From contig JBAXPN010000006.1 in the NCBI GenBank assembly GCA_037132255.1, positions 1-51,469 on the forward strand: a DNA stretch of 51,469 bases. The letters run 5' to 3'. Below, in pieces: positions 15,925 through 20,779 of this stretch. Positions within the stretch are counted from its first letter, which is position 1; every line of letters starts with the position of its first letter. This DNA is from Candidatus Falkowbacteria bacterium. GTDB lineage: Bacteria; Patescibacteriota; Patescibacteriia; Patescibacteriales; UBA12465. The notes under the pieces were generated by a model, which saw only the letters and a list, made by a program, of their open reading frames with translations, ran no database searches and was not told the origin of the DNA. Made by a program: the position numbers and the translations under genes.

Positions 15925-16191
15925 ATGGGACACGTTATTTTAGGAATTATTATCACGGCCGCCGCAGTCGGCATGATACTTAAGACCGAATGGTTAATAA
16001 ATAATTTCGGACGTATCGCCTGGTTCGAAGATAAGCTTGGTTCTGAGGGCGGAACAAGGCTTGGCTACAAGCTAATCGGCATAGTCGTATTATTTGTCGG
16101 TATTGTAGTTATGACCGGCAGCGGCCCCGAATTTATGCGCTGGTTAGTCAGCCCACTCGTCAATTCTAGCCAAGGCCCTTCACAAAATTAA
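15925..16191 (+). CDS. Small 2-TM membrane protein
   Basis: 88-aa ORF starting 6 nt after the M23 gene; two hydrophobic segments. Confidence 0.75.
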   Translation: MGHVILGIIITAAAVGMILKTEWLINNFGRIAWFEDKLGSEGGTRLGYKLIGIVVLFVGIVVMTGSGPEFMRWLVSPLVNSSQGPSQN

Positions 16192-16238: not shown

Positions 16239-16314
16239 GGGCCCTTAGCTCATCTGGTAGAGCACCTGCTTTGCAAGCAGGGGGTGGCAGGTTCGAGTCC
16301 TGTAGGGTCCACCA
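16239..16314 (+). tRNA. tRNA-Ala(TGC)
   Basis: Cloverleaf, G3:U70, anticodon loop TTTGCAA, encoded CCA. Confidence 0.97.
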
Positions 16315-16400: not shown

Positions 16401-17540
16401 TTACTGGGAAAAATTCTCCGGATTCAAATCTGGCTCAAAAATATTTATTGGCCGATTTGGCGGGATGCGCGAGAGAATTTCCATAAAGCTCATGCTTTTT
16501 AGCATGCCAATATCTTTAATGGTCGGATACTGGGCAAACTTAGCAATCTTTTTTGCCTCCTGATCAGTAAGAAGAGCCATGATAAGCAAGGGGTCATATA
16601 TTTGATTTCCTGGCCAATCACTGAGAAAATGATGGACTGAATTCAAATCTGTTACGGCCTGTTGTCTTGGGCCCTCATCATTTAGTTTGTAATATAAATT
16701 GGTGTAGGACCACTGGCGGATTAATTCGAATTTTTGCGCGACATCAGAATCAGCAAAAGAAACAAAACCTTTTTCACTGCTTTCTTTAATCAAGTAGTAA
16801 AGACAATTAAGCCAGCGCTCTCTTTGATTTTTTCCCAATGCAGCTACTTCAGCCGGAAGATTTCTTTCGCTTAAATAATTACAGCGAACTGCATCATTTA
16901 AATCAGAAAATGTATAGGCGATCTTATCGGCTAGCATAACGACATTATGTTCTTGCGGCAAATTTGCATTAACATGTAAACCGTTTTTACCCCGTGAATG
17001 ATGGAGTATTCCTTCGAGTGTTTCAAATGATAAATTGAGACCACGGCCGCCGCGTTCAATTTGCTGAGCAATTACAACACTCATTATTTCATGTTTAAAT
17101 GGTTGTCCAGCAATTTCGCTAATCACTTTTTCTCCCAGGTGCCCAAATGGCGAATGCCCAAGGTCGTGACCCAAGGCGCTAGCTTCAACTAAATAGGTAT
17201 TTAAACCCAGGATGCTCGAAATTTGCACTCCAAGAGCGGCGACCTCATCCGTATGAATTTTACGGTTTCGCAGGTGTTTATTCTCATAGTGGTCAACAAA
17301 GACTTGGGTTTTGTCAGCCAAACGACGCCATGTTTTGCTAAAACTAATTTTTATTCGATCCATCAAAAATGGGTCATGAACATTGAAGTAGGCGGAATCA
17401 TCATCTTCAACTCTAAGTTTCTCACGACCAACTTTATCATCATAAACGCGGAAATGTCGGCGGCCACGAGTAGAGTTAGATTGAAAAGCTTTCGTTGCCA
17501 GCGAATTGATAAAGGGGCGAAAATCGAATTTTGTCTTCAT
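16401..17540 (-). CDS. dgt: HD-domain dNTP triphosphohydrolase (dGTPase family)
   Basis: RRLADKTQVF, RNRKIH, GHDLGHSPFGH and ADKIAY..SDL.D. Confidence 0.9.
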   Translation of the reverse strand: MKTKFDFRPFINSLATKAFQSNSTRGRRHFRVYDDKVGREKLRVEDDDSAYFNVHDPFLMDRIKISFSKTWRRLADKTQVFVDHYENKHLRNRKIHTDEVAALGVQISSILGLNTYLVEASALGHDLGHSPFGHLGEKVISEIAGQPFKHEIMSVVIAQQIERGGRGLNLSFETLEGILHHSRGKNGLHVNANLPQEHNVVMLADKIAYTFSDLNDAVRCNYLSERNLPAEVAALGKNQRERWLNCLYYLIKESSEKGFVSFADSDVAQKFELIRQWSYTNLYYKLNDEGPRQQAVTDLNSVHHFLSDWPGNQIYDPLLIMALLTDQEAKKIAKFAQYPTIKDIGMLKSMSFMEILSRIPPNRPINIFEPDLNPENFSQ

Positions 17541-17633
17541 GGTATGGTGGATTTTTTGTTTATTTTAAAGTTCGAAATTATATTTAGATAATTAAGACAT
17601 TGTAGTATAAATACCCAAATTGTCAAATACAAA

Positions 17634-17662
17634 TTGACAGCCCACGCTAAATTTTATAGAAT
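17634..17662 (+). promoter_or_regulatory. Sigma70-type promoter
   Basis: TTGACA(17634-39)-17 nt-TAGAAT(17657-62). A divergent TTGACA-16-TACAAT for dgt lies at 17626-17599. Confidence 0.75.
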
Positions 17663-17721
17663 ATATAAAGAAGATAATTAACTAGCATACAATAACTTAA
17701 CCTGTGTGTTAACTGGAGCTT

Positions 17722-17865
17722 GCCTACCAAGATAGCGATCACATTTGATCTATATCTACTCTCTCTCGTTCTAACGATTTATTTTCTCACAGTTCTTTGT
17801 AATCTAATTACTCTGCATCTCTAGCCTATCAAGACAATGGTCACATTTGACCTATGTCTACTCTC
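17722..17865 (+). repeat. Two 42-nt imperfect direct repeats (17722-17763 and 17824-17865)
   Basis: 35/42 identical by manual alignment; each contains an interrupted palindrome centred on CATT. Confidence 0.92.
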
Positions 17866-17914
17866 AATTTCTATTGTTCCGTTTGTGCTCTTTTTAACAC
17901 TCATTTTCGCTCAC

Positions 17915-17952
17915 AACGCTCCAGCTACCATCAGTTGGAGCGTTTTTCTTTT
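17915..17952 (+). terminator. Intrinsic terminator
   Basis: AACGCTCCAGCT-ACCATC-AGTTGGAGCGTT followed by a T-rich run. Confidence 0.8.
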
Positions 17953-17986
17953 TGCCCCTTATGGGTAAAGATGGTAAAATTAAGCC

Positions 17987-20779
17987 ATGTCTAAAACAAA
18001 ACCCAAATTAATCATTATTGACGGAAACGCCCTTATTCATCGGAGTTTTCATGCCCTGCCGCCAACACTACGCACTAAAAAAGGCGTGCTAGTTAATGCT
18101 GTTTATGGCTTCACTTCTTTTCTCCTAAAAGCCTTAAATGAATTTCATCCCGAATATGTAGTTTTAACATTAGATAAAAAGGGACCAACCTTTCGCCATG
18201 AAGCCTATACCGAATACAAGGCGACGCGCGTTAAGGCGCCGGACGAATTATATGAACAAATCCCTTTGGTAAAAAAAGTGGCCGAAGCTTTTAATATTCC
18301 GATCTTCGAATTAAGCGGTTTTGAAGCGGACGATCTTATTGGCACAATTTGTGAGAAAACAAAAAAAGAAAAAAACCTAGAAAAAATAATTATTACCGGC
18401 GATCTTGATACTTTGCAATTAATCGACAACCAGACAAAAGTTTATACAATGAGCCGCGGACTCTCAGATAGTGTTTTATATGGCGCCGAAGAAGTTCGTG
18501 CACGATACAGTCTTAACCCCGACCAAATTATTGATTATAAAGCTTTACGCGGTGATGTGAGCGATAATATTCCGGGCGTTAAAGGTATCGGCGAAAAAAC
18601 GGCCAGCGAATTACTAGTTGAATTTAAAACTCTTGATGGCGTTTATACGGCGGCCGAAAAAAATAGCGCGAAAATTAAGCCACGCATCATTGAATTATTA
18701 AAAGAACATAAAGATAGCGCCTATTTAAGTCAAAGCTTGGCAACTATTCATCTCGAAGCACCTCTAAAATTTTCCCTTCGCGATATTAGCTTTACCTCAT
18801 TCAAGCTAGAGAATGTCATGGAGGTATTTAGTGAATTTGAGTTTAAATCACTTCTGATTAAAGTTAAGGACCTGCGTGACAATATTAATAAAGCACATGA
18901 TCGTCAGGAAAGTTCTTCGGCAAAAACTAATAGCAAAGAAACCGAGAATCAGGGCGATGGACAAAAATCGGGTGAACTTAAATTTGTGCGTAATGCTAAA
19001 AAATTTAATTATCAATTAGTTGATGACGATAAAAAATTCTCCAGTTTTTTAAAAAAACTAAAAATTCAAAAAGAGTTTGCGCTCGATACTGAAACTTCAG
19101 GACTCGACCCAATAACAGCCGAATTAATCGGCATCAGTTTTTCCTGGAAAGAAGGCGAGGCCTATTTTATTATTATTAATAAAAATAGATTAAGTGAATT
19201 AAAACCAATTTTGGAGAATACTAAAATAAAAAAGTTTGGTCATAATTTGAAATTTGATTGGCGCGTTTTAAAAAACCAGGGAGTAGAACTAAATGGTTTA
19301 AACTTCGATACGATGATTGCTTCCTATTTATTAAACCCGGGGAACCGCCAACACAATTTAGATTCAATCGTCTTTACTGAGCTCGGTTTTGAAAAAATCA
19401 GTAAAAGTAATCTAGCCTCTACGCAGCCCGCCCAACTATCAATAGACTTCAAAGCGCTTGATCCAGAAAAATTAAGTCTTTATTCCTGCGAAGATGCTGA
19501 TTTTACGAACCGCCTGGTTAAAATATTAAGTAAACGCCTTAAGACGGAAGGGCTTAGCGATTTATTTAATCGTCTTGAAATGCCGCTGGTCGCCATACTC
19601 GGCGAAGTAGAAAATAATGGGATAATATTAGACTTAGAGCCGCTAAAACTTTTAGACAAAGAGGTTGGCGGAAAACTCGCGCAACTTGAAAAAAATATTC
19701 ATAAGCTAGCAAAAGTAAAATTCAATATTAATTCAACCAAGCAATTAAAAGAAGTTCTCTTTGAAAAATTAGCCATTCCGACTGATAATATTAAAAAAAC
19801 AAAAACTGGTTTTTCGACCGCCGAAGATGAACTCGAGAAATTAAATGATCTTCACCCCATAATCCCGCAACTCCGCGACTATCGAGAATTAAATAAACTA
19901 CAAACAACTTATTTAAATGCTTTGCCAACAATGGTCAACGCGAAGACAGGGCGAATCCATACTAACTTTAACCAAACTGTGGCCGCCACTGGTCGCCTTT
20001 CTTCAAACGACCCAAATCTCCAAAATATTCCAACCCGAACCGAAGAAGGACGTAAAGTCAGAGCGGCTTTCGTTGCTGCGCCTGGCTTCCGTCTAATTGG
20101 TTTCGATTATTCACAAATCGAACTTCGTCTCGCCGCCCATATTTCCGGAGATAAAAAAATGATTAGCGCTTTTAAAAATAAAGAAGATATTCATACGGCA
20201 ACGGCCGCGGAAATAAACGGCGTCAAATTAAGCGAGGTGGCAAAAAATATGCGCCGCGAAGCAAAGGCGATTAATTTTGGCATTCTCTACGGGCAAGGGC
20301 CGCATGGTCTAAGCCAATCAGCCGGTATTCCCTATTGGCAAGCAAATGAATTTATTAAAAAATATTGGGAAGTTTATCCGAGTGTTAAAAAAATGATTGA
20401 TAGTTCAATTAAAGAGGCGAGAAAAAATTCTTATGCCATTACTTTATTTGGACGTAAGCGCCCATTACCGGAAATAAATTCTAGCATTCCGATGATTAGA
20501 AAAAGTGCTGAGCGCATGGCGATAAATACGCCGCTCCAAGGAACAGCGGCCGACTTAATAAAGATGGCAATGATTAAAGTTGAAGAATTAATTAAAGGCC
20601 AAGAAGATGATATCCGAATGCTTCTACAGATTCACGATGAGTTGATTTTTGAAATTAAAAAAGATAAGATTAGTTTTTATTCGCCGAAAATAAGAGATAT
20701 CATGCAAGATGTCTTAAAGTTACGCGTGCCAATAATCGTTGATGAAAGTATTGGTGATAATTGGGGCGAACTAAAATAA
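17987..20779 (+). CDS. polA: DNA polymerase I
   Basis: 5'-3' exonuclease (IDGNAL, EADD), 3'-5' exonuclease (DTET, HNLKFD, YSCEDA), polymerase motifs DYSQIELR, KAINFG.LYG and QIHDEL. Confidence 0.98.
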   Translation: MSKTKPKLIIIDGNALIHRSFHALPPTLRTKKGVLVNAVYGFTSFLLKALNEFHPEYVVLTLDKKGPTFRHEAYTEYKATRVKAPDELYEQIPLVKKVAEAFNIPIFELSGFEADDLIGTICEKTKKEKNLEKIIITGDLDTLQLIDNQTKVYTMSRGLSDSVLYGAEEVRARYSLNPDQIIDYKALRGDVSDNIPGVKGIGEKTASELLVEFKTLDGVYTAAEKNSAKIKPRIIELLKEHKDSAYLSQSLATIHLEAPLKFSLRDISFTSFKLENVMEVFSEFEFKSLLIKVKDLRDNINKAHDRQESSSAKTNSKETENQGDGQKSGELKFVRNAKKFNYQLVDDDKKFSSFLKKLKIQKEFALDTETSGLDPITAELIGISFSWKEGEAYFIIINKNRLSELKPILENTKIKKFGHNLKFDWRVLKNQGVELNGLNFDTMIASYLLNPGNRQHNLDSIVFTELGFEKISKSNLASTQPAQLSIDFKALDPEKLSLYSCEDADFTNRLVKILSKRLKTEGLSDLFNRLEMPLVAILGEVENNGIILDLEPLKLLDKEVGGKLAQLEKNIHKLAKVKFNINSTKQLKEVLFEKLAIPTDNIKKTKTGFSTAEDELEKLNDLHPIIPQLRDYRELNKLQTTYLNALPTMVNAKTGRIHTNFNQTVAATGRLSSNDPNLQNIPTRTEEGRKVRAAFVAAPGFRLIGFDYSQIELRLAAHISGDKKMISAFKNKEDIHTATAAEINGVKLSEVAKNMRREAKAINFGILYGQGPHGLSQSAGIPYWQANEFIKKYWEVYPSVKKMIDSSIKEARKNSYAITLFGRKRPLPEINSSIPMIRKSAERMAINTPLQGTAADLIKMAMIKVEELIKGQEDDIRMLLQIHDELIFEIKKDKISFYSPKIRDIMQDVLKLRVPIIVDESIGDNWGELK

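Follow-up and report, generated by a model that had tools for sequence, protein, structure and literature searches.

The 51,469 nucleotides (nt) of DNA analyzed here, which we refer to as the window, are positions 1 to 51,469 (forward strand) of contig JBAXPN010000006.1 in GenBank assembly GCA_037132255.1, a Candidatus Falkowbacteria bacterium of the Patescibacteriota, and the element that concerns us lies on the + strand at 17669-17952, between a gene for an HD-domain protein and polA, the gene for DNA polymerase I. Judging from the sequence, we consider it rather likely that this segment is a gene of about 280 nt for a structured non-coding RNA, with its own sigma-70-type promoter and a terminator ahead of a leaderless polA. 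The RNA looks like a member of a new, lineage-restricted family that has no place in Rfam and occurs in a few species of a single Patescibacteria genus. A first-pass annotation, made by a model from the letters of the window, had named a promoter TTGACA-17-TAGAAT, about 280 nt without a credible open reading frame (ORF), a strong terminator and a separate promoter for polA, and all four are present. The promoter (17634-17662, + strand) agrees with 11 of 12 consensus positions in a consensus scan, and the intrinsic terminator (17915-17955, + strand) consists of a hairpin at 17915-17944, with a stem of 12 base pairs (bp) that includes six G-C pairs and a loop of 6 nt, and of the sequence TTTTCTTTTTG, whose T-run touches the -35 box of polA. 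The predicted transcript of ~284 nt takes its 5' end from this promoter and its 3' end from this terminator, and its region holds + strand ORFs of just 34, 43 and 46 amino acids (aa), with zero Pfam matches among them. The 284-nt RNA is predicted to fold with an energy of -63.6 kcal/mol (z = -4.64), a stability equaled by 0 of 200 shuffled sequences, and the reverse strand is less exceptional (z = -2.37). In composition the predicted RNA is 62% pyrimidine, which places it at the 97th percentile of 284-nt windows, and 13% G, with CU-rich tracts between the hairpins.

Within the predicted RNA, a repeat search of the window detected direct repeats of 45 nt at 17719-17763 and 17821-17865 that are 82% identical and spaced 102 nt apart, each of which forms a two-tier hairpin. 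The unit that we call module 1 (17719-17768, + strand) has its hairpin at 17730-17757, AGATA-gc-GATCA-CATT-TGATC-ta-TATCT, flanked by GCCTACC and ACTCTC, and module 2 (17821-17870, + strand) has the corresponding hairpin, AGACA-at-GGTCA-CATT-TGACC-ta-TGTCT, at 17832-17859; the modules scored 71.4, 66.0 and 56.5 bits (module 1) and 73.9, 67.6 and 55.8 bits (module 2) in covariance-model searches, and the hairpin pattern matches the window twice, where shuffled sequences would give 0.00 matches. Two 42-nt repeats of identical fold, 102 nt apart, had been reported in the first-pass annotation and are base-exact in the sequence; the compensatory pattern claimed for them, with four of seven differences making up two base pairs and the other three unpaired, was likewise reproduced exactly. 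These 42-nt cores differ at positions 6, 12, 14, 15, 17, 28 and 33, of which 12 and 33 (T:A to C:G) and 17 and 28 (A:T to G:C) are hairpin partners that have changed in a compensatory manner, and 6, 14 and 15 are unpaired. When seven substitutions were placed at random in 200,000 simulations, 4.9% of the runs left all ten pairs unbroken, and 0.09% did so while compensating two or more pairs (P ~0.001). Compensatory-only divergence at the paired positions of the two copies indicates, so far as sequence can, that selection on them is ongoing. The stretch 17689-17997 is covered piecewise, with zero differences, by contigs that come from two other studies (runs X5 and X6), which excludes an assembly artefact of one record as the source of the tandem arrangement.

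Relatives of the element were sought through its neighbor polA as well as through its own sequence and structure. For the latter, covariance models were built from the two window units (R1), from five modules (R2) and from twelve (R3); models R2 and R3 give two matches in this genome (G000). With the spacer as BLAST query, 60 relatives yielded matches to the polA promoter and, beyond these, a single weak one to module 2. The polA gene was found in 66 of the 69 genomes of the genus, and among the 30 best polA loci, which were fetched, the HD gene adjoins polA in six, three of which (in genomes G068, G013 and G020) carry a module at the syntenic place. Another 80 metagenome loci were fetched by means of the polA N-terminus, and nine of these have a module, representing eight distinct sequences. 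Together the four genus genomes and the eight distinct metagenome contigs make up the set of 12 loci to which we refer below, and in every module-bearing locus the module lies upstream of polA and on the polA strand. An exact scan of all species genomes with an International Union of Pure and Applied Chemistry (IUPAC) pattern matched two contigs (L062 and L063), both of them Patescibacteria metagenome-assembled genomes (MAGs) and probably the same loci as those of G068 and G013, and 0 metagenome contigs; the guess in the first-pass annotation that relatives would be found in the candidate phyla radiation (CPR) is thus borne out by genome matches of the scan, which are solely in Patescibacteria MAG contigs. 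The covariance-model search that it had advised returned homologs in 4 of 69 genus genomes and none in the other genera and families sampled, with filters on and only part of the first-look candidates scored, such that weak homologs may have been missed. Several weak model matches were rejected as chance: those in G069 (two), G196, G150, G139 and G188 have no promoter-terminator context, four of them being inside ORFs of at least 336 aa, one across the junction of two ORFs and one inside a small opposite-strand gene that is thioredoxin-like as judged by eye, and an intergenic match in G011 has a G+C content of 21% and no conserved outer stem, and its contig is not the one with polA.

The 12 loci share an architecture as well as a module. 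A promoter of the form TTGAC(A/T)-17-TAnnnT is located upstream of the modules in all 12, at 221-541 nt before polA, and all 12 also have a hairpin with a T-run, which stands 44-58 nt before the polA ATG and ends about 40 nt from it. An ortholog of the HD gene is divergently oriented upstream in 11, the twelfth locus being too short to tell, and the back-to-back -35 boxes of the HD gene and the RNA that are seen in the window are also visible in G068, G013 and G020. Two modules, 60-100 nt apart, are present in nine of the loci and a single module in three. The metagenome locus L125 encodes the HD protein that is closest to that of G000 (66% identity; 54-66% for L125, G013 and G068) and has the same ORF-less two-module layout, and its modules are unlike each other, from which it follows that the identity of the two G000 copies is lineage-specific; we read their 82% identity as reflecting a duplication or conversion in that lineage and subsequent compensatory divergence. 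Indels have scrambled the 5' leader between G013 and G068 to the point that it cannot be aligned, and the module, the CGUUCUUUUUCGCUCC tail and the terminator are all retained, which argues for selective constraint on these parts. In predicted folds, the 5' ends of the single-module RNAs of G013 (L026:2438-2586, - strand) and G068 (L022:1303-1462, + strand) pair with the conserved CUUUUUCGCUC tail that immediately precedes the terminator and enclose the module, and the folds predicted for G000 and L125 (again from single sequences) have a long-range helix around the first module only.

Comparison of 12 downstream-type modules makes it possible to separate what is fixed in the module from what is merely paired. 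The outer stem of 5 bp, A-G-A-Y-A / U-R-U-C-U, is invariant, the 5' flank YCGCCYAYC and the 3' flank AC/AY are conserved, and a small internal loop leads to an inner stem of 4-7 bp whose 5' arm may read GAUCA, GGUCA, GGUCC, GGAUC, GGAUU, GGGU or GGUC, each with its complement, beneath an A-rich apical loop of 3-10 nt. Across the 12 modules 96.6% of the cells are paired, and shifting the partner by 1-3 columns lowers this to 24-51%. Changes on both sides of a pair account for 14 cells in four of the ten pairs. The observed score was reached in 0 of 500 shuffles, a count that overstates the significance, given that the sequences are related and that their alignment was fitted to the model. The fourth outer pair (15-43) is U.G in 8 of the 12 modules, where the other strand would carry a C.A mismatch, and it therefore fits only the polA strand, as RNA (or single-stranded DNA). 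The suggestion made at first pass that selection acts on structure is supported by the syntenic hairpin in other species, by its covarying inner stem and by the conserved promoter and terminator.

Known families and repeats offered no match. A search of 17400-18100 against Rfam 15 at permissive thresholds gave as its best match VrrA (RF01456), which scored 24.1 bits (gathering score 50; E 0.095), and that alignment consists of the terminator hairpin and T-run only, with the modules outside it. Over the whole window Rfam reported just rRNA, 5S RNA and tRNAs (eight of the last), at loci L048, L022 and L026 it reported 0 matches at E <= 1, and ARAGORN predicted no tRNA or transfer-messenger RNA (tmRNA) in the RNA region. 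A lack of any family at its gathering score had been named in the first-pass annotation as support for novelty, and novelty is supported. Motif and full-unit searches of the assembly (46 contigs, 1.11 Mb, 36.8% G+C) located two copies, both at this locus, and this confinement to a single locus rules out a dispersed palindromic repeat, whether mobile or of the repetitive extragenic palindromic (REP) type; of the findings that were to have overturned the proposal, neither a known-family match nor a dispersed REP-like repeat has appeared. A search of the genome for the complement of the 5' flank gave four matches with one mismatch, which is about what chance would give by a hand estimate, and we therefore propose no target. 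A full-text literature search, judged at the level of its search results, returned nothing on an RNA upstream of polA in Patescibacteria.

How such an RNA might function can be sketched from the anatomy of the module. The functional core would be the module of ~45 nt, with its fixed outer stem, internal loop, inner stem in which only the pairing is kept and variable A-rich loop. A fixed stem base with fixed flanks and a free tip would suit a sequence-specific site, likely one for a protein and less likely one for another RNA, and the RNA might then act in trans as a one-site or two-site ligand of its putative partner. A protein-binding module is our best guess from the sequence. The more specific roles that had been suggested earlier have fared less well. 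A need for two sites does not agree with the 3 of 12 loci that carry one module, and a protein sponge is unsupported. An antitoxin-like RNA is not borne out by any likeness to a type III array, the downstream gene being polA and the repeats non-contiguous, and the idea of a processed mini-array founders on copies that are 82% identical and on orthologs with one module or two dissimilar ones.

In the clade that includes G020 the modules are found in a different setting, which has to be considered in any account of this element. A conserved ORF of 56-59 aa occupies the 5' end of the transcript in 8 of the 12 loci (G020 and seven metagenome loci); it is located at L107:1038-1208 (+ strand), upstream of polA, and also in L048, L092, L100, L103, L106, L111 and L114. 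Its product has the motif MMTERLLPFPSLLPPIDF.CYRP...ELPL..CG.D..K....I.FDGG, its indels are in frame, and it has no Pfam family and three matching proteins in a set of 5.8 billion. The modules lie ~50-130 nt past the stop codon of this ORF, in a well-conserved 3' region. In alignment A8 (L107:1205-1475 and orthologs), the whole interval from ORF to terminator is highly conserved and contains further predicted helices, including an invariant GCACCGGGGAGCGGUGC hairpin directly after the stop and a CGAU/AUCG hairpin after the second module. The small ORF was not found in the G000 genome by tblastn and is also missing from L125, G013 and G068. These four loci hold promoter, module(s) and terminator all the same, and such retention in the absence of the small ORF would argue for a role of the RNA that is independent of it.

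A number of observations weigh against the reading of the element as an RNA gene with a protein partner, and they deserve to be considered together. The partner protein and the target of the module are both hypothetical. An independent small RNA (sRNA) gene is not the general state of the element by the sequences at hand, in which the modules follow a small ORF in 8 of the 12 loci. The retention of an ATG in the 3' arm of the module (see below) is unaccounted for by an RNA, five of the ten pairs are invariant across the 12 modules, and the limits noted above for the covariation counts and the genome covariance searches apply. A search of sequencing runs found no run recorded as RNA that contains the locus, the DNA of which is present in runs X1-X8. 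Strong model matches are restricted to 4 of 69 genus genomes, a narrow and patchy distribution; 79 genomes from 15 further genera within the family gave 0, as did the other families in a sample of 151 genomes of the order. The genomes nearest by polA (G016, G008 and G018) have no module, and G080 and G088 have kept the adjacency of the HD gene and polA with spacers of 180 and 228 nt and no module. The RNA is thus dispensable in close relatives, and it could be decaying.

An effect in cis on polA, either as a long regulatory leader in which a protein or ligand controls attenuation at the terminator or through occlusion of the polA promoter by transcription and termination across its -35 box, is one alternative, which we think improbable. 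The element is always directly upstream of polA and on the same strand, in all 12 loci its T-run touches the -35 box of polA, and the closing of the module by a helix of 5' end and tail in the predicted folds of G013 and G068 is reminiscent of an aptamer. Against a leader stands the conserved promoter that intervenes between the element and polA. In the window this promoter, TTGCCC-17-TAAAAT with an upstream TG (17952-17980, + strand; consensus scan), ends its -10 box 6 nt before the ATG of polA, and the arrangement TGnTAAAAT, 5-8 nt and ATG precedes polA in 26 of the 30 fetched genus loci (L021-L050), most of which are RNA-less. A motif like the Shine-Dalgarno (SD) sequence was found before polA in 0 of these 30 loci. 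With a -10 box that ends 5-8 nt before the ATG and no SD, polA mRNA is probably leaderless, and it probably has a promoter to itself both in loci with the RNA and in loci that lack it. Across 789 crude ORFs of this genome an SD-like motif precedes 49, and TAnnWT is found 5-8 nt before the ATG in 169, which suggests that leaderless or SD-independent initiation is widespread in this organism. Moreover, no pairing that competes with the terminator is seen in the minimum free energy or centroid folds of four RNAs, in which no systematic search for it was made; occlusion would need no conserved and covarying hairpin; and the closing helix is a single-sequence prediction.

The small ORF raises another alternative, namely that the modules are parts of a 3' untranslated region (UTR), concerned with stability or processing, of a small-protein gene, and that what remains in G000 after loss of the ORF is a drifting leftover. 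The 8 of 12 loci in which the ORF shares the transcript with the modules, its absence from G000 and the absence of the element from most of the genus would all be expected of such a decaying remnant. The four ORF-less loci, however, keep promoter, module(s) and terminator even though their HD proteins have diverged to 54-66% identity with that of G000, and the two G000 copies have diverged at paired positions by compensatory changes only. We consider decay unlikely for these reasons.

It is also conceivable that the palindromes act as DNA, as sites for a protein on double-stranded DNA, as hairpins in single-stranded DNA, or as diverged duplicates of the core promoter and start of polA. The module hairpins are palindromic and can form on either strand, and the 3' arm of the module contains ATGTCTA, the same seven bases with which polA opens in 11 of 12 loci (window positions 17852-17860 and 17987-17993, respectively). 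The likeness extends further in some modules, in which the loop and 3' arm resemble the polA sequence from -10 box to ATG: the resemblance was equaled in 0 of 500 shuffles for G013, 1 of 500 for L100 and 32 of 500 for G000 module 2. It was not significant in six of the nine modules tested, however, and ATGTCTA is a common start that opens 16 of the 789 crude ORFs of this genome. Descent from a duplicated promoter, mimicry and chance are all possible sources of the likeness. Other observations also argue against a DNA-level element: the conserved arms are 17 to ~30 nt apart, depending on the module; the inner arms change in concert with no half-site kept; the opposite strand of the U.G pair found in 8 of the 12 modules would read C.A; the consensus scan scored nothing promoter-like inside the modules; and the element, being single-copy and syntenic, is not mobile. 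DNA operator sites, which the first-pass annotation had listed as a possible refutation, are made unlikely by the same variation in arm spacing, covariation of inner arms and U.G pair, and we regard a DNA-level role in general as very unlikely. Two further relations between module and polA were considered. Antisense pairing of the 5' arm with the 5' end of polA was rejected, as there are only 5 nt of complementarity, and in G020 polA starts with ATGCCC and the modules keep ATGTCTA; co-evolution of the module with the polA promoter is not supported, the promoter being constant in the G020-like clade while the module loops vary.

The same 3'-arm sequence would permit a reading at the RNA level, to which we give very little credence, in which the module mimics the start of leaderless polA mRNA and serves as a decoy, its AUGUCUA being held in a hairpin by a conserved complementary arm, and the RNA titrates whatever recognizes that 5' end. 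Were this so, the recognizer would be the ribosome, an initiation factor or a dedicated repressor, and the locus would represent a Patescibacteria-specific control of DNA polymerase I synthesis in a setting of scarce SD use. Least likely of all is a small or leader peptide that begins at the ATG of the module 3' arm (MST..., at 17854 in the window), since, for all that this ATG is kept in 17 of 21 modules, that the G013 and G068 frames are set apart only by a 3-nt indel that keeps the frame and by substitutions that are for the most part synonymous or conservative, and that the rarity of SD motifs in this genome makes a missing SD no objection, the frames range from 8 to 68 aa with only MS(T/I) conserved, four run past the terminator and the polA start, the ATG is buried in the conserved stem and absent from four of the 21 modules (it is ATA in G000 module 1), and the window ORFs have no Pfam match. 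We read the module as non-coding, on the strength of these comparisons of frames.

The genes on either side of the RNA gene that we favor are both associated with DNA metabolism. The upstream neighbor (16401-17540, - strand) encodes an HD-domain protein of 379 aa that is like dGTP triphosphohydrolases (Pfam HD domain, E 3.6e-10); its best NCBIfam matches are dGTPase equivalogs (E 8.7e-59), all of them below the curated cut-offs. A promoter-like site for this gene, TTGACA-16-TACAAT (17599-17626, - strand), was located by the consensus scan back to back with the RNA promoter. Downstream, polA (17987-20779, + strand) encodes a DNA polymerase I of 930 aa with 5'-3' and 3'-5' exonuclease domains (Pfam DNA_pol_A, E 3e-150). 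Just past the 3' end of the dGTPase-like gene is a gene for tRNA-Ala(UGC) at 16239-16314, and beyond that end there is also an ORF of 88 aa (15925-16191) with no Pfam or NCBIfam family.

Patescibacteria have tiny genomes and few regulators, and to our knowledge almost nothing is known of their regulatory RNAs. The locus described here is a well-delimited candidate, with a promoter, a terminator, a covarying 45-nt module and a fixed place flanked by two genes of DNA metabolism. Natural variants exist that have one or two modules and that have or lack the small ORF, and the locus is tractable for metatranscriptomics and pull-downs, though its reach is small, being limited to a few species of one genus.

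Comparison with known systems helps to define what kind of element this might be. Like REP elements, bacterial interspersed mosaic elements (BIMEs) or repeats resembling miniature inverted-repeat transposable elements (MITEs), the modules are imperfect intergenic palindromes; unlike them, they are found at one locus in the assembly, are syntenic across species and covary. A mini-array of the kind seen with clustered regularly interspaced short palindromic repeats (CRISPR), in which nearly identical repeats alternate with unrelated spacers, differs from the present element, in which the copies are 82% identical and each ortholog carries a single module or an unlike pair at fixed positions. With the arrays of type III antitoxins (ToxI-like) the element shares the order of repeated RNA units, terminator and protein gene, but only 45 of each 102 nt are repeated here, the units of other lineages are dissimilar, 3 of 12 loci have a single unit, and polA is not a ToxN-like endoribonuclease toxin. 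The translational operator of the DNA polymerase of phage T4, gp43, is an RNA hairpin located at the ribosome-binding site of its own mRNA, and, like the module, it combines a hairpin with flanking single strands and is genetically tied to a DNA polymerase gene; the module differs in that it belongs to a separate terminated transcript and in that polA is probably leaderless, and its binding by DNA polymerase I is hypothetical. The closest comparison may be drawn with a general class of bacterial RNAs, which comprises trans-acting sRNAs with their own promoters and intrinsic terminators and sRNAs derived from 3' UTRs. The conserved part of the element is a stem base with its flanks and not an obvious single-stranded seed. 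As for a free-standing sRNA gene, a promoter of its own and an intrinsic terminator are found in 12 of 12 loci, and a conserved coding frame is absent from G000, L125, G013 and G068 and present in the G020-like clade. The element resembles the sRNA class in its promoter-to-terminator unit of ~140-280 nt, its structured core, its pyrimidine-rich single strands and, in these four loci, its want of a conserved ORF, and it resembles the 3'-UTR-derived sRNAs in that the core of the sister clade sits in the 3' UTR of an mRNA.

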